Positions 2,629 through 60,380 of a DNA stretch of 64,000 nucleotides are shown in pieces. The stretch is from a virus (taxonomy: Duplodnaviria; Caudoviricetes), in IMG/VR virus record IMGVR_UViG_3300028591_000012, positions 1-64,000 of that record. One strand, 5' to 3'. How positions within the stretch are numbered: the stretch's first letter is position 1; the number at the start of each line of letters is the position of its first letter. The notes under the pieces were generated by a model. The model was not told where the DNA came from. It made no database searches and saw only the letters and a list, made by a program, of their open reading frames with translations. A program made the position numbers and the translations under genes.

Positions 2629-5600
2629 ATGGATATCGTAACCCTCGCCGCCGCAAGACGTCTGATTTATAATGCAATTGCCGGATTAGACGGACCTATC
2701 GCCGGAAAAAACTGTAAGATACAGTCAGTAGAAGACATTACAGGTGGACACAGAATAACTTTTTCCTGGAATGATGACGAAGGTGTAGCACGTACATCTA
2801 CGCTTGATGTAATGGACGGAAGAGGCATAGAAAGTGTTGAGATTAAGTATGCTGCTTCTTCAAGTGGAACAACTCCGCCAGATAGCGGTTGGAGTTCTAC
2901 GGTTCCTTCAGTTCAAGACGGATATTATCTCTGGACAAGAAATACCCTTACATTCTCTGACGGTAGCACAGAGATAGAGTATCTTGTAGGTAAGCAGGGT
3001 TTCTCTCCGATTGTAGCAGTTACTAATATTCCTGGCGGTCACAGGGTTACGATAACAGACCAGACAAGTGCAAAACAGTTTGACGTTATGGACGGTCTTG
3101 CAATAGACCATATAACTGTTGAATATGCAGAAGGTGACAGTGGTACTACACCACCCCCAAATCCTTCTGACTGGCAGAATTCTCCACCAGTTGTTGCAGC
3201 AGGTAATTATCTCTGGACCAGAAATACAACTTACCTTGAAGACAATACTACTTCTGTTGCTTATATGGTTGCATTACAGGGGGCAGCCGGTATTTCTCCT
3301 GATGTTGAAACAACTCAGCTTCCAAATGGTACGCTTGTTAATATTACCGATAAAGACGGCCCACACTCTTTTACGATTTATAACGGTGAAGACGGAACTG
3401 ACGGTAGAGACGGTGCTGATGGTCAGGACGGTTTTTCACCGATTATAACTACTGATAAGGTTGGTAAAACTACTACTATTACAATTGTAGACGCTACAGG
3501 TACATCATACGCAACAATCTTAGACGGTGTTGACGGTAAGACGATTACCAATATTACGATAAATTCAAATAATCACGTTATAGTAACTTACTCAGACGGA
3601 ACATCATCTGATGCCGGAGAACTTATCGTTCAGTCAGCAGTTATGAGTGTAAACGGACAGACAGGTGACGTTGTATTGGACGCAGAAGATGTCGGAGCTT
3701 TACCAGATGATACACCTTTGTTCAGCGGTGATTATAATGATTTAACAAACAAACCGAATCTTGCAACAGTTGCCACAAGCGGTGATTATGATGATTTGAC
3801 TAATAAGCCGACTATTCCTGCAGCACAGATTCAAAGTGACTGGAACCAGAGTGACAACACACAGAAAGACTTTATCAAGAACAAACCTACAATACCTTCT
3901 GCACAGATACAGTCAGACTGGAATCAGTCAGATAATACCCAGAAAGACTTTATTAAAAACAAACCTACTCTTGGTACTGCATCAGCAAAAAACAGTACAA
4001 GTTCTGTCATAGAAAACAGTACAGACTTGGTAGAAAGCGGTGCCGTAAAGACTGCAATAGATTCTGCTATCTCTCGTGTTTATAAACCAGCAGGAAACAA
4101 AACCGTAGCTGAATTAACAAGTGCATTACTTATAGCAGGTAATCTTGGTAACGTTTACAATATGACCACATCGGGAGAAACTACTTCTGACTTCGTTGAA
4201 GGGGCTGGTAAACCGATTGATGTAGGTGCTAATGTTGCCATAGTTGATGTAGGAACTTCTTCTACTCCTTCGTATAAGTTTGACTTACTTTCAGGTATGG
4301 TTGATATGTCGAACTTCGTTCAGAAGTCAAATACGGCAGGTTTATTGAAGAATGACGGTACTGTTGATACGACTGAATACAACGGAAAGATTACTGTATC
4401 TAATGATACATCTGCCCTAACAGATTCAGACAGCTTTGATGAAACATCAGCAGGAGCAAATCCTACTTCTACGAAAAGAAGGTTATTAAGTTCTTTGTGG
4501 ACTTATATAAAGGGTAAGATTACAGGTGCTATATCGGGAATAGTAGACAGTAACTTGACAGTTTCAAGAGCTTTGGTATCAGATTCAAATGGTAAGGTTA
4601 CAGTATCAGATGTTACATCTACGGAATTAAGCTATCTTGATGGAGTAACAGATAACATTCAAACACAACTTGACGGTAAAGTTGAATCAGGATTACCAAC
4701 AGATTCAATATTGCACTATTCATTCGATGAAGTGCCTGATATTCCAGACGGTAATAATGTTGTATTCAATAATAAAGACTTTAGCCTTACTGACTGGCAT
4801 AGTAGCGATGGTACGATTTCTGTAGATTCTGAAGGGCGATTAAAGGTGAGAGATATAACGGGTCTGGCTGTAAGTTTTTATAAAGATAATCTTTATGATA
4901 CAGACGCAGCTGGTAAAACCTGTTTAATGAAAATATATGTTGAAAAAAATTGTCAATTAGTGTGTTTATGTTATGATGGTAATGAAGTAAGAGTTGTATC
5001 AGAACTTTATTCTTTATCAATAGGGTGGAATATTGTTAATATAGATATTGCTATAAGTCCTGTTATTCAAAATAATTTAATTTTTAACATAGCAAATTCT
5101 TATTCGTCAGATTGTATAATTGAATGGTTATACATCGGCGATTTATCTTATAAAACACCAGGAATTGATAATCAAACTGGAGTATATAATTATAATCTTA
5201 CAAAAAGTTATTCAATTCCAGGTTTAAGCGGAAAAGCTATTGGAAATAGAGGTTATGGAATAGAAACAGGATGTAATAGTCTAGCTGGTAATTTTTCTTT
5301 ATCTTTTTGGTCTAAAAATGAATTTCAAGAGTATTATCCAATACTTATTTGCGATGAAACAGATAATACTGCGGTTTGGTTAAAAATACAAGATGGTATT
5401 TTTAATAAATTTGATATTTCTATATCTTGGCCAACTAATGATAGTGGTAGATATGGTTATATGACTATATACAACGGTACAAGGTTAACGTCACAATGGA
5501 CTCATATAGCTTTATCTAATAATAACGGTATTTATAAAATTTATATCAACGGAATTTTAGTAGCAACATACACCTGTACTGCATATAAAAACAATGCTAT

Positions 5601-16321: not shown

Positions 16322-16350
16322 TTAAGCTCAGGATTTTTCTGAACTAAATT
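16322..16350 (+). promoter_or_regulatory. Promoter TTAAGC-N17-TAAATT, followed by terminator hairpin 16351-16390
   Basis: Motif copy; hairpin plus T run after the tube gene. Confidence 0.55.
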
Positions 16351-45734: not shown

Positions 45735-46457
45735 TTATTCCTCCAATCTATTTTTTCCAATTTCAAAAAAATGTAAATCTTTTTCAATACCAATAAAATT
45801 TCGATTTGTATTTTTACAAGCAATTCCTGTAGAACAACTACCAAAGCAGTTATCCAGAACTGTTTCTCCTTCATTTGTGTATGACTTAATTAAAAACTCA
45901 AGCAAAGCAACAGGCTTCTGAGTTGGATGTAATGCCGATTTCTGAATGTCTTTTGGAAACCGAAGAATAGATTTTGGATAACGTTCTGTACTATCGTATG
46001 AAGTTAAGCCTGTTTCACCATAATCTGTTGTCTTTTTACAATTTTGCTTTGATAACGAACTAGAAACTTTTCTTGTATGACCGTATGTTTTTTGTGGATT
46101 ATAAACAGGGGGTTTTTTATAAAAAACACAAATATCCTCGTGACTTCTTAAAGGCATTTTTTTTGCATTTAGAAAACCTGTAGGTTGAGTTTTTTCCCAT
46201 ATTAGATTATATCTCCATAATTTTTTATTGCTCTGCATAAGTTCCGCTGTAAAGAATCCGTTTGCAAATAGAACTATTGCACCATTATCTTTTACAATTC
46301 TTTCATATTCACTCCATAATGGCTCAAAAGGAATCTTTACATCCCATTTATTTCTTGCAGTCTGTTCATAAGGTAAATCACAAAGAATCATATCTATAGA
46401 TTTAGAGGGAATATTTTTCATTTCAACAAGACAGTCACCGTGAATAATGCTTATCAT
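45735..46457 (-). CDS. DNA N4/N6-methyltransferase (beta class)
   Basis: DLPY, HPTQKP and LDNCFGSCST. Confidence 0.9.
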   Translation of the reverse strand: MISIIHGDCLVEMKNIPSKSIDMILCDLPYEQTARNKWDVKIPFEPLWSEYERIVKDNGAIVLFANGFFTAELMQSNKKLWRYNLIWEKTQPTGFLNAKKMPLRSHEDICVFYKKPPVYNPQKTYGHTRKVSSSLSKQNCKKTTDYGETGLTSYDSTERYPKSILRFPKDIQKSALHPTQKPVALLEFLIKSYTNEGETVLDNCFGSCSTGIACKNTNRNFIGIEKDLHFFEIGKNRLEE

Positions 46458-47824: not shown

Positions 47825-48952
47825 CTAAAGAAAAAGTGACAGTAACTTATCCTGTAATTCAGCAACATCATCAAAATGTTCTGGAAGAAAGTTGGCATAA
47901 CGCTCGGTCATACTGTTTTTTCCTGAAGAGTGACCAAGTACACACTTCACCTTTATTTCACTTATTCCGTTTGCAAGCAGATATGTGTTTACGAAGTGTC
48001 TCAAAGAATGAAAGGAAAGCCCCATTTTTATACGGTCTTCACGTTTACTCAATCCGCAGTATTTATAGAATGTTTTTCTGTAAGTGTCCTGAGCTTCTGT
48101 AAAAGCCATATTACCGTTTCTTCTAATGCAGGTATCAAGCAGAACATAAATGCGCGGACAAATACGCACCTTTCTTTTTTCACCGTCCTTGACCGGCTGC
48201 AGAATATTATCATTCATCTGGTCTTTTACATCAACATAAGTTCTGAATAGAGTTTCCCTTCGTATCGCACAAATCTCACTTATTCTCATTCCAGTAACCG
48301 CGGCTACAAGAGAAAATATCTTTCTTTCTTTGTTGTCCCACTTTTTATTAAACGCAGCTTTAAGCTGTTCAACTGTAAATGAAGATTTTGTCTTTGCATT
48401 TACATACATCATAGGAACGGAAACAAATGGATCTGATGTAAGAAGTTTATCAGCCTTTGCGTAAGAGAGGATAATTTTAAGACAGGTACACGACAGATTT
48501 ATTACAGAGTTGGATAACTCCTTTTCAATTAAGCTGGCCCTGAACTTCTTTATATGAGAAGGCTTAATCTCCATAAGCTTTATGTTTTTGAAAAAAGGAA
48601 TTAAAAATGTATCAAGAGTGTGTCTGTAAGCTTTCAGGGTATTCTTAGCAACAGGCTGTTCCTTTCCCTGACCGGCCTGTATTTTATCTGACATCCATTG
48701 TGAGTTATCGTCAAAAAATCCTTTTGCATAAGCTCCGAATGTCATACCCAAAGAAGAGTATAAAAGCCCCTGCGAAAGCAGTTCTGTGCAGTAACATCTT
48801 GCCTGGGTTTTATTGGTTTTACCTGTAGAATGAGCTGTAGTTCTTTCTCCGTCTGGAGAGTAAGTGCGGTAATAATAAACAATCCTTCCGCTTGGAAGGG
48901 TGCGTGGAAATACTGTAAAAGGTTCTCTGTATCTTGGCATCGTAGTGGTCAC
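47825..48952 (-). CDS. int: Tyrosine integrase
   Basis: TGMRISE, FHSLRH, LGHS and terminal Y; N-terminal arm-binding domain (start may be ATG 48940). Confidence 0.95.
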   Translation of the reverse strand: MTTTMPRYREPFTVFPRTLPSGRIVYYYRTYSPDGERTTAHSTGKTNKTQARCYCTELLSQGLLYSSLGMTFGAYAKGFFDDNSQWMSDKIQAGQGKEQPVAKNTLKAYRHTLDTFLIPFFKNIKLMEIKPSHIKKFRASLIEKELSNSVINLSCTCLKIILSYAKADKLLTSDPFVSVPMMYVNAKTKSSFTVEQLKAAFNKKWDNKERKIFSLVAAVTGMRISEICAIRRETLFRTYVDVKDQMNDNILQPVKDGEKRKVRICPRIYVLLDTCIRRNGNMAFTEAQDTYRKTFYKYCGLSKREDRIKMGLSFHSLRHFVNTYLLANGISEIKVKCVLGHSSGKNSMTERYANFLPEHFDDVAELQDKLLSLFL

Positions 48953-56379: not shown

Positions 56380-56440
56380 ATATTAGAGTGAATAAATAGT
56401 GAGCTTAATTTTTAAGCGTGTTTTTTTTCCGTGTTACGCT
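56380..56440. promoter_or_regulatory. Back-to-back promoters TTAAGC-N17-TAATAT (-) and TTAAGC-N17-TACGCT (+)
   Basis: 56380-56408 and 56412-56440. Confidence 0.65.
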
Positions 56441-56458
56441 TTGAGCGAGGTACGAAAT

Positions 56459-57550
56459 ATGACACCTGTATGTTCAAAGTGTAAATATCTGACAGACAAG
56501 AGCGTAAGATTCAGAAAGTGTGCGCGTATTCCTATTTTTTATCCTGATATGCTCTGCTGTAATGAAAAGAATATGGTTAAGGATAATGTAACCGGCGAAA
56601 GCTACACTCCTTACTGTGAAGAAGTAAACCGTCACGCAGAATGTCTTGAATACTATCCTTCAGGTCTTGAGAAACCAGCCATTACTTTCTTTGATGTTGA
56701 TAACACTCTTGCCGTTTATGGAGATTCTCAGTTTGTCATTACTTACGATGGAACTGAGCCGAACTCAAAAATGGAAGCCGTAGGTGAATACGATGATGAA
56801 CAGAAAGTTTATGTTTATGAGACAGTTCTTGAACATTCCTGTATCGTAAAGGCCGCCTGTGTACTTGATGATGTCATTTCTGAAGTTGTTGAATATAAGG
56901 TTGAAATTGCTGACGTACCTGTAATCACTTTTGATAAGGCAACAAATACCGTAACGATAGATTCATATAACGAAGTTCACTACACAACAGACGGAACAAC
57001 CGTTACCGATGAATCTCCTTTATACGAAGGACCGTTTGTAATCGACCATAACCTTACAGTAAAATGCCGTTCTTACTATAAAGATGAATACTCTGAAGAA
57101 GTTTCTCTTGAATGTATTTCAGTTGAGCCGCCAGTAATTACCTTTGACGCTGATACAAATACAGTAACGATTACCGCAGATGATACAATCCTCTACTCTA
57201 CTGACGGAAGCGATATTTATGATGATTCTGACCAGTATGTTGCTCCGTTTGTAATCGACAGAAATACAGTTGTAAAGGCAGCCTGTATTGTTGACGGTGA
57301 ACTTTCAGAGCAGGCAGAAAAAGAATGTAAGGTTCCTACTACGCCTGTAATCTCTTTTGATACACGAACAGCTACGGTTACGATTACTTCCGAAAATCCT
57401 GTCTTGTATACAACAGACGGAAGCGACGTAAAGAAGAAAGACGAAGAATACAAAGGTCCGTTCAAGATTACACAGACTACAACTATTAAAGCCAAGTCTA
57501 TTGTAGATGACAGATTATCTGCTCAGGCAGAAAGAGAGTGCGTAATTTAA
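56459..57550 (+). CDS. Protein with Cys-rich N-terminus and four FN3-like (chitobiase C-terminal) repeats
   Basis: P.I.FD.....V.I.....YTTDG.......Y.GPF.I.....VKA repeats. Confidence 0.75.
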   Translation: MTPVCSKCKYLTDKSVRFRKCARIPIFYPDMLCCNEKNMVKDNVTGESYTPYCEEVNRHAECLEYYPSGLEKPAITFFDVDNTLAVYGDSQFVITYDGTEPNSKMEAVGEYDDEQKVYVYETVLEHSCIVKAACVLDDVISEVVEYKVEIADVPVITFDKATNTVTIDSYNEVHYTTDGTTVTDESPLYEGPFVIDHNLTVKCRSYYKDEYSEEVSLECISVEPPVITFDADTNTVTITADDTILYSTDGSDIYDDSDQYVAPFVIDRNTVVKAACIVDGELSEQAEKECKVPTTPVISFDTRTATVTITSENPVLYTTDGSDVKKKDEEYKGPFKITQTTTIKAKSIVDDRLSAQAERECVI

Positions 57551-57680
57551 GCTCACATTTTTTCTCCACTATCCTCTTCTTAAAGAACAATGATAATTTG
57601 CTGAGTTTTATCATTGCTTTTTAGTAATGGTTTTTAAGCCCATCTGTAACTCAGCAACAGGTGGGTTTTCTTTTTCAGGA
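57547..57680 (+). promoter_or_regulatory. Promoter TTAAGC-N17-TATCCT plus two-hairpin kissing-loop leader
   Basis: Loop TTGCTGAGTT (57598-57607) is complementary to terminator loop AACTCAGCAA (57648-57657). Confidence 0.6.
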
Positions 57681-57686
57681 GCTTAG

Positions 57687-58445
57687 ATGAGTTTTAATCT
57701 TGTTCACGAAGACTGCTATGAGTTTATACCTACACTTGAAGATAAATCTGTAAATCTTATCGTAACTGATCCGCCGTATAAACTAGGTAACACTAAGGGG
57801 GGGGGCTTGTATAAACTTATTGATGGTGGCTCTCAGGAAGATAACCCTTATAACCGCAAAGCTACTAATGCGATAACACAATTAAAGTCTCTTGATTCTG
57901 TAGATTTTGACGCTACAAAATTTCTCAATTTGATTAAACCAAAGATGAAACAGTTCTACGGTTATTTCTTCTGTAATAAGTTACTGATACCTGAATACTT
58001 AAACTTTGCTGTAGAAAATAAATATTCCTTCGATATATTAGCACTTCTAAAAGCAAACCCGATTCCTGCGAGAAATAATCATTTCTTACCAGATATGGAA
58101 TACTGCATTATGATTCGTGAAGGCGGTACTTATTGGTCAAAAGACGCAAAATTTGATGATTACAGAAAATATTATACAGTTCCTTGCTGTGGTAAGCGAT
58201 TACATCCTGCAGAAAAACCTGTCGAGTTTCTTGAACGTTTTGTACGTGTAAGCTGTCCTGAAGACGGTCTTGTATTTGACCCTTTCAGTGGAAGTGGTAG
58301 TACAGGAATTGCCTGTCTGAGAAATGGCAGGAACTTTCTTGGTTGTGAAAAGGACCAAAAGTTCTTTGAGCTTGCAAATAAAAGATTAAAAGATTTTGAA
58401 GATGATTTGAACGGTGTTGGCGGACTGTTCGAGGGGATTGAATGA
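57687..58445 (+). CDS. DNA N4/N6-methyltransferase (beta class) with internal G9 tract
   Basis: DPPY, HPAEKP and DPFSGSGST. Confidence 0.9.
   Translation: MSFNLVHEDCYEFIPTLEDKSVNLIVTDPPYKLGNTKGGGLYKLIDGGSQEDNPYNRKATNAITQLKSLDSVDFDATKFLNLIKPKMKQFYGYFFCNKLLIPEYLNFAVENKYSFDILALLKANPIPARNNHFLPDMEYCIMIREGGTYWSKDAKFDDYRKYYTVPCCGKRLHPAEKPVEFLERFVRVSCPEDGLVFDPFSGSGSTGIACLRNGRNFLGCEKDQKFFELANKRLKDFEDDLNGVGGLFEGIE
57797..57805 (+). repeat. G9 homopolymer, candidate slippage tract
   Basis: AAG GGG GGG GGC; longest G/C run I saw in this AT-rich window. Confidence 0.6.
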
Positions 58446-59356
58446 CAGAACACGAGTTTACGTTAGCAGACAGAATTGCAAAGATTAAGAGCATAAATGA
58501 GCAGTATGATTTAGAGCATAATGGTTATATCTCATTTAGCGGTGGTAAGGATTCTACTGTACTACACTACCTCATTGATGAAGCTTTGCCGGAAAATAAA
58601 ATCCCTAGAGTATTTATAAACACAGGAATTGAATACAAACTTATCTTACAGTTTGTAAAGGAAATGGCTTCTAAAGATGACAGATTTGTAATATGGACTG
58701 TAGGAAAAGATATTAAAAATACGCTTTTGCGCGTAGGTATGCCTTTTAAGTCAAAAGAACATTCTCATAAACTTTACGCATATAAAAAAGGCTGGATTGG
58801 AGAATCTGTAAAAAAGTATTTTAAGCTTATTCCTAATGGATATATCACTTGTCCAAACAGTCTTATGTATCAGGTTGAAGACGATTTTACAATGAACATA
58901 TCTGACCAATGTTGTTATGAATTTAAAAAGAAACCAGCTTTAGATTATATGAAGCAAAGTGGACGTTTAATTACTCTTACAGGAATGATGAAAGCAGAAG
59001 GTGGTCAGCGTACTTCTTTGAATTGTATCGTTACAGATAAATCAGGAAAGCTTAAAAAGTTTCACCCTATGGCTGTTGTTTCTGATGAGTGGGAAAAATG
59101 GTACATAGAACACAAGAGTATCCAATTGGCTTTGCAAATTAACGCTGTATGGACAGCCAATGCAGCCTGACCTTTTGAAATTGTATGGTGGGTAATAAAG
59201 CTTAGCCAATTGGATACTCTTGAGCAGGTTGCACCTACAGAGAGAAAAAGAGCCGAATGGTTATGGAAGCCAGTTTATGATGAATATAGACGTATTGGTT
59301 ATAGATTAAGAAAAGAAAATAAAGAAGAACAAAGTTTGTTCAAGGATTTAGAATGA
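58442..59356 (+). pseudogene. PAPS/APS-reductase-like (PP-loop, Fe-S) gene interrupted by an inverted 72 bp segment; 304 aa when re-inverted
   Basis: SFSGGKDS, NTGIEY and CCYEFKK.P; stops at 59170 as written; flipping 59132-59203 gives LYYPPYNFKRSGCIGCPY and reads to TGA 59354-59356. Confidence 0.85.
59113..59222. repeat. Perfect 19 bp inverted repeats flanking a 72 bp segment
   Basis: CAAGAGTATCCAATTGGCT (59113-59131) and AGCCAATTGGATACTCTTG (59204-59222). Confidence 0.95.
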
Positions 59357-59721
59357 AAATAAATAGAAATATATTACCTGACAGTGTAATGGTACTTGGA
59401 ACTAAGTATAAGATATTCTACGAGACAGAAGCTCAGCAGCCTAAGATGAAAGGCAATGACGGTTACTGCGAAGCTGTTGCTAAAGAAATACACATTGCAA
59501 GAGATTTGTTTGTTCCAAAAGATGACCCGATGTTACTGAAGGACCTTGCTGAATACGGAAGAACTGTAATAAGGCACGAAATTGTTCACGCTTTCTTCAT
59601 TGAATCAGGACTTGCTCAGAACAGTTCTTATGCAGAAAATGAAGAACTTGTAGACTGGATTGCAAGACAATTTCCTAAGATGGCAGAGTGTTTTGCAAAG
59701 GCAGGTGTAACAGGAAAATGA
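59353..59721 (+). CDS. HExxH metallopeptidase-like phage protein
   Basis: DGYC..RHEIVHAF..ESGL..EELVDWIA.QFPK. Confidence 0.7.
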   Translation: MKINRNILPDSVMVLGTKYKIFYETEAQQPKMKGNDGYCEAVAKEIHIARDLFVPKDDPMLLKDLAEYGRTVIRHEIVHAFFIESGLAQNSSYAENEELVDWIARQFPKMAECFAKAGVTGK

Positions 59722-60380
59722 CACGCCAGCAGATAGCAGAGTCTTTAGACCTTCACATTAACTATGTAAACTCAGCTTTTGAAGCCGCGATTAAAGAGCA
59801 TCCTGAACTTGACCTCTATGACCCTTCCATAAACAACAGAAAAGGTATGGGGGCAGATTATACTCTTGAACAGGTTATGCTTGCTATGAGTTATCTTAGA
59901 GACGGTAAAGGATTATCTGAACTTGAAAAAATTATGCTTGAAGAAGACTTTACTATGAGGGAGCCTGAAAAGGTAAAGGCAATAGGTATAGAAGGAACTG
60001 AGGAATTTTTGAAGAAGGTAGCTAACTACCCTAAGAAGAAATGCTGTTCAACCTGTGCTTTCTGTACTAAGGCTGCAATGCGAAACAGAAAGCCGGTTAT
60101 GAAGCCTTACTGCAACTTCTGGAAGCGTTTTCTTCATAGAATGAAAACAGATAAAGGAACAATGCCCTCACCTTACAATGAATGGTGTAATCAGTGGGAA
60201 TATTCAGGTAAGGAACCGCTTATATTCTATACAGCAGATTCACCTGCCAACTTGGATATTTACGGTAATGTTAGAAATGAAGTTATGGGATTTGATGTTT
60301 CAGTTTTCGGTAAAGATTCTAAGGAAGTGAAGCTTGTTACTGATGTAGGTATGGACGTGTTGCCGGATTTTGAAGATTAG
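59718..60380 (+). CDS. Hypothetical protein with N-terminal HTH and Cys cluster
   Basis: MTRQQIAESL; CCSTCAFC..C..C. Confidence 0.55.
   Translation: MTRQQIAESLDLHINYVNSAFEAAIKEHPELDLYDPSINNRKGMGADYTLEQVMLAMSYLRDGKGLSELEKIMLEEDFTMREPEKVKAIGIEGTEEFLKKVANYPKKKCCSTCAFCTKAAMRNRKPVMKPYCNFWKRFLHRMKTDKGTMPSPYNEWCNQWEYSGKEPLIFYTADSPANLDIYGNVRNEVMGFDVSVFGKDSKEVKLVTDVGMDVLPDFED

Follow-up and report, generated by a model that had tools for sequence, protein, structure and literature searches.

The first 64 kb of the 104,297-bp virus record IMGVR_UViG_3300028591_000012 in IMG/VR, referred to here as the window, carry an operon in which two adjacent genes, coding for an N6/N4 DNA methyltransferase and for an enzyme resembling 3'-phosphoadenosine-5'-phosphosulfate (PAPS) reductases, are found in alternative ON and OFF forms among related phages. 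In the methyltransferase gene, the variable element is a tract of nine guanines (G9), which is in frame in the assembled genome; in the PAPS-like gene, it is a short segment flanked by inverted repeats (IRs), which was assembled in the inverted, truncating orientation. We consider it likely that the operon modifies DNA or counters host defence, and that each of the two genes has a heritable, probably reversible switch of its own. This phase-variable reading is well supported by the comparison between phages presented below.

The record has direct terminal repeats and a completeness rating of 100%, and its G+C content is 36.3%. The phage of the window is labelled WIN, and the related loci are labelled L002 to L162. 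All of the compared sequences are metagenome assemblies, and the comparison of the PAPS-like family comprises about 119 distinct homologous genes from viral contigs and metagenome contigs. A blastn search of the operon against a phage collection returned no matches. Viral contigs were likewise scanned for exact matches to the junctions of WIN, both ON and OFF; none was found, and no ON copy of the same strain was recovered. The matches of the PAPS gene in a genome collection are scattered over bins of many phyla and do not point to a host.

The inversion switch is recognizable from the anatomy of the PAPS-like gene itself (Table 1). When the segment 59132-59203 is replaced in silico by its reverse complement, an uninterrupted open reading frame (ORF) of 304 aa is obtained, which contains both repeat arms and the core and ends in an ATGA overlap with the gene of the downstream HExxH protein. 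The flipped 304-aa protein is colinear over residues 1-300 with more than 100 relatives from viral and metagenome contigs. The difference between the two forms is also seen in the domain profile PF01507, of which the truncated product matches positions 4-51 only, whereas ON relatives match positions 3-173 of 175. The two arms (59113-59131/59204-59222) constitute the longest perfect IR with a spacer of 20-1500 nt in the whole genome, and no other copy of the arm sequence was found in that genome. The coding remainder beyond the right arm (59223-59356) is intact and conserved in all three lineages with an inverted segment.

Table 1. Positions, strands and characteristics of the operon, its two putative switches and other features of the window
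Feature	Position	Strand	Characteristics
Tyrosine recombinase (integrase family member), flipping candidate	47825..48952	-	PF00589 at 1.7e-15; phrog_1
Gene upstream of the operon	56399-57550		Fn3-associated and CHB_HEX repeats
Phage-specific promoter-like motif TTAAGC-N17-TAnnnT	57547..57575	+	First hexamer overlaps the stop codon of the Fn3/CHB_HEX gene
Leader hairpin 1, followed by a U-run	57581..57623	+	Inverted repeat that folds; loop complementary to the loop of hairpin 2
Leader hairpin 2, 12-bp stem followed by a U-run, intrinsic-terminator-like	57636..57668	+	Fold energy -16.1 kcal/mol
N6/N4 DNA methyltransferase, 252 aa, intact (ON)	57687..58445	+	PF01555, E 4.7e-26; DPPY and FxGxG motifs
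G9 putative slippage tract	57797..57805	+	Codons 37-40 (AAG GGG GGG GGC), in frame; encodes a conserved GGG tripeptide
PAPS-reductase-like PP-loop enzyme gene as assembled, 242 aa (OFF)	58442..59170	+	TGA stop inside the inverted segment
Inverted repeat, left arm, 19 nt	59113..59131	+	100% complementary to the right arm
Invertible core, 72 nt	59132..59203	-	Minus strand encodes 24 residues, including the invariant CxxC
Inverted repeat, right arm, 19 nt	59204..59222	+	Arms covary between lineages
C-terminal coding remainder of the PAPS-like gene	59223..59356	+	In frame only with the core flipped; stop overlaps the next start (ATGA)
HExxH protein, 122 aa, mini-zincin-like predicted fold	59353..59721	+	phrog_1233 (unknown function); AlphaFold pLDDT 85.5
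orf219, 219 aa, conserved backbone gene ending the operon	59718..60380	+	ATGA overlap with the HExxH gene

The earlier note on this DNA, made from the window alone, had proposed that the PAPS-like gene contains an invertible segment, and the related phages bear this out, as they carry the segment in both orientations. Long IRs at this site (13-20 nt, with a total span that is always 110 nt) are confined to the clade closest to the window. Within it, the segment is inverted in WIN, L145, L064 (the sequence of which is the same as that of L005) and L004, and upright in L059, L002 and L065. No inverted gene was detected among the approximately 112 relatives devoid of the IR, which gives a hypergeometric P of about 4e-6 (our own arithmetic from four inverted and three upright IR-bearing genes against about 112 IR-less ones). 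In L064 and L065, which come from the two samples Ga0247609 and Ga0247611, the flanks are about 98% identical and the 110-nt switch of one is the exact reverse complement of that of the other, with no mismatch in the 70-nt core after reverse complementation. The same inverted state as in WIN was found in L145, which has 94% nucleotide identity to it and was obtained from an independent run, DRR855105, with an independent assembler. On a tree built from the N-terminal 225 residues of the PAPS-like proteins, the inverted genes occupy three separate positions, indicating at least three independent inversion events. Once flipped, the gene reads as intact and consensus-like in each of the three lineages. 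The consequence of the inversion is a premature stop in WIN and L004; in L064, translation through the inverted segment meets no stop, and the result is a full-length protein in which 24 residues are recoded and the CxxC is missing.

The repeat arms are informative as well. Their complementarity is 16-20 of 20 positions in the clade versus 6-11 of 20 in the outgroups, and alignment of the arms demonstrates that they evolve in concert: lineage-specific substitutions are mirrored in both arms, and one of them entails an S-to-G replacement in L059. The repeat seems to have its origin in a coding coincidence, since the peptide stretches encoded at its two sites, of the KSIKL and QLDTL types, are each other's reverse-complement translations. 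For the flipped PAPS-like gene as a whole, the ratio of non-synonymous to synonymous substitution rates (dN/dS) between WIN and L145 is 0.16.

The second putative switch resides in the methyltransferase gene. The enzyme is readily assigned, with 92.5 bits to PF01555 against a curated cut-off of 26.7, DPPY and FxGxG motifs visible in the alignment, and a PADLOC match to Type II methyltransferases at 3e-34; it aligns over its full length with 22 homologues. Its G9 tract is the sole run of G or C of seven or more nucleotides in the 104-kb genome, where runs of nine or more are expected about 0.025 times per genome (an analytic estimate). The GGG tripeptide that it encodes is conserved across the protein family, so that the tract as such reflects the choice of codons. 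The GGG triplet is the rarest glycine codon of this genome (3.9% of Gly codons), and the probability of a K-G-G-G motif being written in the codons of G9 was estimated analytically at about 5.5e-4.

Comparison with relatives revealed that the tract is both kept and altered in length. The G9 tract is also present in L145, and L140 (77% amino acid identity) has identical G9 codons despite diverged neighbouring codons; mixed glycine codons stand in its place in L139, L141 and L143. In L148 (71% amino acid identity), a G10 tract at the same codons shifts the frame, and the reading ends 12 codons later. Thus, in-frame G9 (WIN, L145 and L140) and out-of-frame G10 (L148) both exist in nature. The view, also put forward earlier, that the tract acts as a switch is supported by these alternative states, G9 being in frame in three phages and G10 occurring in a fourth. 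The difference in tract length lies between relatives, both strains of this phage (WIN and L145) carrying G9. A poly-G context scan retrieved five unrelated loci, none of them with a methyltransferase.

Several further repeats were noted in or near methyltransferase genes. In L138, a more distant phage with 46% G+C, G10 runs occur at 1473 and 1849 in genes directly upstream of a methyltransferase homologue, which is itself split into two ORFs. Repeats located in or adjoining methyltransferase homologues beside the PAPS-like gene include (GA)9 at L081:2468, (AT)9 at L019:2360, and G9 at both L013:1899 and L020:65; in L081 and L019, the methyltransferase match is divided over two reading frames, and the repeat falls between them. 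The window contains a second N6/N4 methyltransferase gene (45753-46397, minus strand), devoid of a G-run and located about 1.4 kb from the integrase gene.

Simple repeats are a property of the wider PAPS-like family as well, having been found in 33 of its 119 distinct genes. The predominant type is (AG)n with 4-12 units, located near residues 72 and 223, the latter being the position of the left arm in the clade of the window; (AC)10, G6-G8 and A9 also occur. Repeats number 2.25 per 10 kb within the gene and 0.54 per 10 kb in its flanks (a 4-fold difference in density, P = 2.5e-8), several of the flank repeats being located in neighbouring methyltransferase homologues. Of 12 frameshifts detected in PAPS-like genes, 11 fall on a simple repeat. 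At one and the same site, L020 has (AG)7 and L092 has (AG)5, both out of frame in sequences that are 97.6% identical, and L014 has (AG)6 in frame. The syntenic locus L140, which keeps the G9 methyltransferase, has its PAPS-like gene (3759-4672) frameshifted at a G7 tract (3982). The earlier note had called for a survey of related phages for poly-G tracts and IRs that co-occur in this gene pair. The comparison reveals that switch-like repeats recur in the PAPS-like family and in neighbouring methyltransferases; the gene pair itself is not tightly conserved, the gene directly upstream of the PAPS-like gene being a DNA methyltransferase or Mom in 16 of 92 loci.

Two side observations concern the same loci. 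L110 carries (AC)10 at position 642, at a site with the same flanks where (AG)5-7 is found at L020:3663 and L014:3669, so that the repeat unit has been replaced. In L140, one extra G would restore the frame of the PAPS-like gene, and a T5orf172 gene is located upstream of the methyltransferase.

Taken as a mechanism, these features would operate as follows. Polymerase slippage by one G at codons 37-40 would shift the frame of the methyltransferase, which is ON in the assembly. Recombination or template switching between the arms would reverse the 72-nt segment of the PAPS-like gene; the upright segment would supply the CxxC, and the inverted one would bring in a stop codon and deprive the protein of the CxxC and of its C-terminal helices (OFF). 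As the genes are joined by ATGA overlaps, the OFF state may also lower the translation of downstream genes. From the comparison between relatives, we infer that such switching takes place within the population of this phage; the states shared by WIN and L145 indicate that either switching is not fast relative to strain divergence or OFF is favoured.

Several observations weigh against this proposal. The evidence is a comparison between phages, made on assemblies, and not within one population. WIN and L145, which come from independent samples and are 94% identical at the nucleotide level, share both OFF and G9. Within the part of the PAPS-like gene left untranslated in the OFF state, the two differ at 5 synonymous and 7 non-synonymous codons, numbers too small to establish constraint. 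The IR has decayed to 15 of 20 positions in L060, and the arms vary from lineage to lineage in their inner halves, with no conserved dyad. With regard to function, the methyltransferase-PAPS adjacency is not conserved, and no DndA-like cysteine desulfurase (PF00266) was found in the phage (models of DndD/E were not searched), which makes phosphorothioation by the PAPS-like protein alone doubtful.

Most of these points could also be accommodated by a decaying gene. On that explanation, which we regard as unlikely but which fares best among the alternatives, the IR makes the gene prone to rare and effectively one-way inversion by template switching, loss of a costly gene is favoured, and G9 is a neutral codon quirk. 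An OFF state common to WIN and L145 across about 5% divergence, a constraint on the tail that does not reach significance, a decaying IR in L060 and arms that lack a conserved recombinase site would all be expected of it, as would the absence of the PAPS gene from the corresponding slot of L146 and the frameshifts in many relatives. Decay does not readily account, however, for flipped sequences that have stayed intact and consensus-like in three independent lineages, nor for the low whole-gene dN/dS given above. It is equally at odds with arms that are kept perfect through lineage-specific paired changes, and with ON and OFF forms in the near-identical strains L064 and L065. For the methyltransferase, the retention of G9 across diverged codons and the occurrence of G10 in a relative speak against neutrality, and in the PAPS-like family the repeats recur at the same sites, with both in-frame and out-of-frame lengths.

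If the segment is indeed reversibly inverted, the agent responsible has to be considered. The phage encodes one tyrosine recombinase, and no serine recombinase was found in it. A recombinase 66% identical to that of WIN sits 1.5 kb upstream of the PAPS gene in the IR-bearing locus L005. The missing dyad in the arms speaks against a dedicated site-specific invertase, and the arm pattern is accounted for at least as well by recombination over short homology or by template switching during replication. The integrase gene lies between the arms of a perfect 13-nt inverted repeat (47673-47685/48976-48988); repeats of this length are to be expected by chance.

What the PAPS-like enzyme does can be approached through its conserved residues and predicted fold. 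Six cysteines are invariant in 32 intact homologues (C137, C157, C158, C195, C244 and C247), and the last two of them lie in the invertible segment. The AlphaFold (AF2) model of the upright relative L059 has a mean predicted local distance difference test score (pLDDT) of 92.5, and its best fold matches in Foldseek (top match 7lhr) are the Fe-S adenosine 5'-phosphosulfate (APS) reductase of Mycobacterium tuberculosis, PAPS reductases and the Fe-S sulfurtransferase TtuA. The upright CxxC together with the upstream CC pair matches the four-cysteine 4Fe-4S motif of APS reductases. As the CxxC is encoded in the invertible segment, the inverted state would strip the protein of half of this presumed CC...CxxC cluster site, along with the C-terminal helices. 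A PDB sequence search with a single ON protein returned no matches, and a profile search gave weak matches to the PP-loop. In PADLOC, matches to BrxP (2.4e-12), SspD (5.5e-5) and, weakly, DndC were obtained, all of them restricted to the PP-loop region. The neighbours of the PAPS-like gene in the operon are the methyltransferase, the HExxH protein and orf219. A role of the PAPS-like protein in DNA modification or counter-defence is plausible on these grounds, and the products of the operon would then modify the DNA of the phage or counter the defence of its host.

It is improbable, in our estimation, that the gene is instead an auxiliary metabolic gene (AMG) coding for a true CysH-type reductase of sulfate assimilation, the ON and OFF states of which would tune host sulfur metabolism. 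The PF01507 domain, the PHROG annotation (PAPS reductase/AMG) and the APS and PAPS reductases among the best folds point in that direction. However, the scores lie far under every CysH/PAPS-reductase equivalog cut-off (30 bits against 154 for PRK02090 and 19 bits against 165 for TIGR00434). No conserved cysteine follows C247 in the alignment of 32 homologues, that is, in the C-terminal tail where CysH has its catalytic cysteine. The protein has the canonical SGGKDS PP-loop, as in ATP-pyrophosphatases, its neighbours are enriched for DNA methyltransferases and Mom, and a phage PAPS domain has been found experimentally to possess anti-Dnd activity (bioRxiv 10.1101/2021.05.05.442762).

The least probable explanation, and one that we consider highly improbable, is that the inversion is an assembly or sequencing artefact of the IR: every compared sequence is a metagenome assembly, but the same inverted state recurs at 94% identity in an independent sample and assembler (L145), inverted genes are found only where long IRs exist, and, since metagenome assemblers normally use k-mers longer than the arms of 16-20 nt (k119 and k141, which are within the range of assembler k-mer sizes, appear in contig names among the sequences), both junctions must be present in the reads.

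Returning to the reading of the operon as a pair of phase-variable genes, its consequences would be considerable. Phage counter-defence genes are usually treated as either present or absent, while here one operon would combine two mechanistically different reversible switches, placed on genes that probably determine how the phage DNA is modified. If this is true, progeny would be released in mixed ON and OFF modification states and would hedge between classical restriction by hosts that cut unmodified DNA and modification-dependent restriction by hosts that cut modified DNA. Intragenic invertons would, moreover, be extended from bacteria to viruses. In the annotation of viromes, "broken" or "cysH AMG" calls in the PAPS-like family may represent OFF states of switchable genes, and the wider family appears to have gained such switches repeatedly. 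A broader evolutionary proposal is possible, although we hold it only tentatively and would not call it probable. According to it, the flip switch arose de novo in an enzyme gene and its arms were kept perfect by concerted evolution, so that it makes up, with the poly-G methyltransferase, an epigenetic bet-hedging module of two bits and four states; in the family as a whole, three kinds of hypermutable device (dinucleotide repeats, homopolymers and an inverton) would have arisen convergently in one gene, partly at the same codon positions, under fluctuating selection by host defence.

Parallels to each half of the proposed system are known. In phages Mu (Gin/G) and P1 (Cin/C), DNA inversion gives two heritable states; a dedicated serine invertase flips kilobase-sized segments that swap the C-termini of tail fibres and hence the host range. 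The element described here differs from these in that a serine recombinase is absent from the phage, the invertible segment measures 72 nt and the target is the active-site region of an enzyme. More similar are the bacterial intragenic invertons reported by Chanin et al., which were divided into "premature stop" and "recoding" classes and include small segments such as a 57-bp flip (bioRxiv 10.1101/2023.03.11.532203). Like them, the switch of the PAPS-like gene is a short IR-flanked segment within a coding sequence, with a premature stop in WIN and L004 and in-frame recoding in L064. Unlike them, it is located in a phage genome, its arms have no conserved core across lineages, and the segment removes two predicted Fe-S cysteine ligands.

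Slippage at homopolymers has precedents in both phages and bacteria. The agt gene of phage T2, which encodes a glucosyltransferase, is a DNA-modification gene. Gomez, Barrick and Waters described homopolymer slippage in T2 agt and T4 rIIA, by which frames are reversibly shifted and a mixed progeny arises that escapes host defence (bioRxiv 10.1101/2025.10.21.683753). The G9 tract resembles these phage contingency loci in being a homopolymer run within a phage gene. It differs in that the run is a poly-G, that the gene affected codes for an N6/N4 methyltransferase, that the 104-kb phage is uncultured, and that the run is paired with an inversion switch in one operon; a term search of that text gave no hits for methyltransferases, PAPS, inversions or dinucleotide repeats (10.1101/2025.10.21.683753). 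In the phasevarion literature, repeat length is described as setting the ON or OFF state of bacterial Type III mod or Type I hsd methyltransferases and thereby altering genome-wide methylation. Those are cellular genes that regulate host expression, whereas the enzyme of the window is a solitary phage methyltransferase, the likely target of which is the phage genome.

The association of a PAPS-reductase domain with an adenine methyltransferase is likewise not confined to this operon. Piel et al. studied a vibriophage fusion of a PAPS domain and Dam, encoded in a variable region, which has anti-Dnd activity and an infectivity cost on the ancestral host (bioRxiv 10.1101/2021.05.05.442762). That example is a single fusion protein with no switch, in contrast to the window, in which separate genes, each with its own switch, are known from their sequence alone. 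PAPS reductases are also present in Aca-regulated anti-defence operons (PMC13551039).

The operon in which the two genes are embedded comprises four plus-strand genes following a promoter-like motif, namely those of the methyltransferase, the PAPS-like enzyme and the HExxH protein, and orf219. The motif TTAAGC-N17-TAnnnT occurs in 9 copies in the window, compared with 1.24 expected, a count reached by none of 100 shuffles, and the copy at 57547-57575 is identical in L146. The promoter motif and the ATGA links between genes (58442-58445, 59353-59356 and 59718-59721) agree with the layout described earlier. The end assigned at 59721 does not, as the last of these overlaps extends the operon into orf219, up to 60380. 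The latter gene was found in L145, L146 (90%), L140, L002, L059 and L060.

Between the promoter-like motif and the methyltransferase gene there are two hairpins with loops complementary over 8-10 nt, and the leader fold has a z-score of -2.9. In L146, hairpin 1 has one compensatory A-T to G-C change in its stem and hairpin 2 is invariant, and the 170-nt leader region is 93% identical, exceeding the conservation of the flanking genes. No Rfam family was detected in 57300-59800, and a scan for the leader hairpins found nothing. As L146 is the only comparable relative, covariation is too thin for a test of a kissing complex. The earlier description of a kissing-loop leader is therefore retained with regard to the two hairpins and their complementary loops, and modified in that the structure is seen as terminator-like, as after other copies of the promoter. 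It looks like the general promoter-plus-terminator layout of this phage, and the combination of promoter and hairpin copies hints at a phage-wide arrangement of the antitermination type. At the promoter-motif copies at 16322 (+) and 40882 (-), a strong hairpin with a U-run follows directly.

For the HExxH protein, no Pfam, NCBIfam or PADLOC family was found. The fold matches of its model are weak and non-significant (selecase, SPRTN and IrrE, all with E >0.07), and a protein-atlas lead to SprT-like families is weak too. It had been proposed as a functional part of the system, an assignment that we do not uphold, since the protein also occurs without the PAPS gene. The related phage L146, also of 104 kb, shares its leader, methyltransferase, HExxH protein and orf219 with the window and lacks the PAPS gene, the replacement of which indicates that this slot is variable. 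The position of the PAPS-like gene of the window is occupied there by a DUF5662 gene and a 70-aa ORF (L146:3750-5497).

A comparison of 57687-60380 of the window with L145 revealed a mosaic, in which the methyltransferase gene differs at 1 of 759 nt and the three downstream genes are 94-95% identical (synonymous divergence, dS, about 0.2). This pattern suggests a recent event at the methyltransferase gene, either its replacement by recombination or a sweep.

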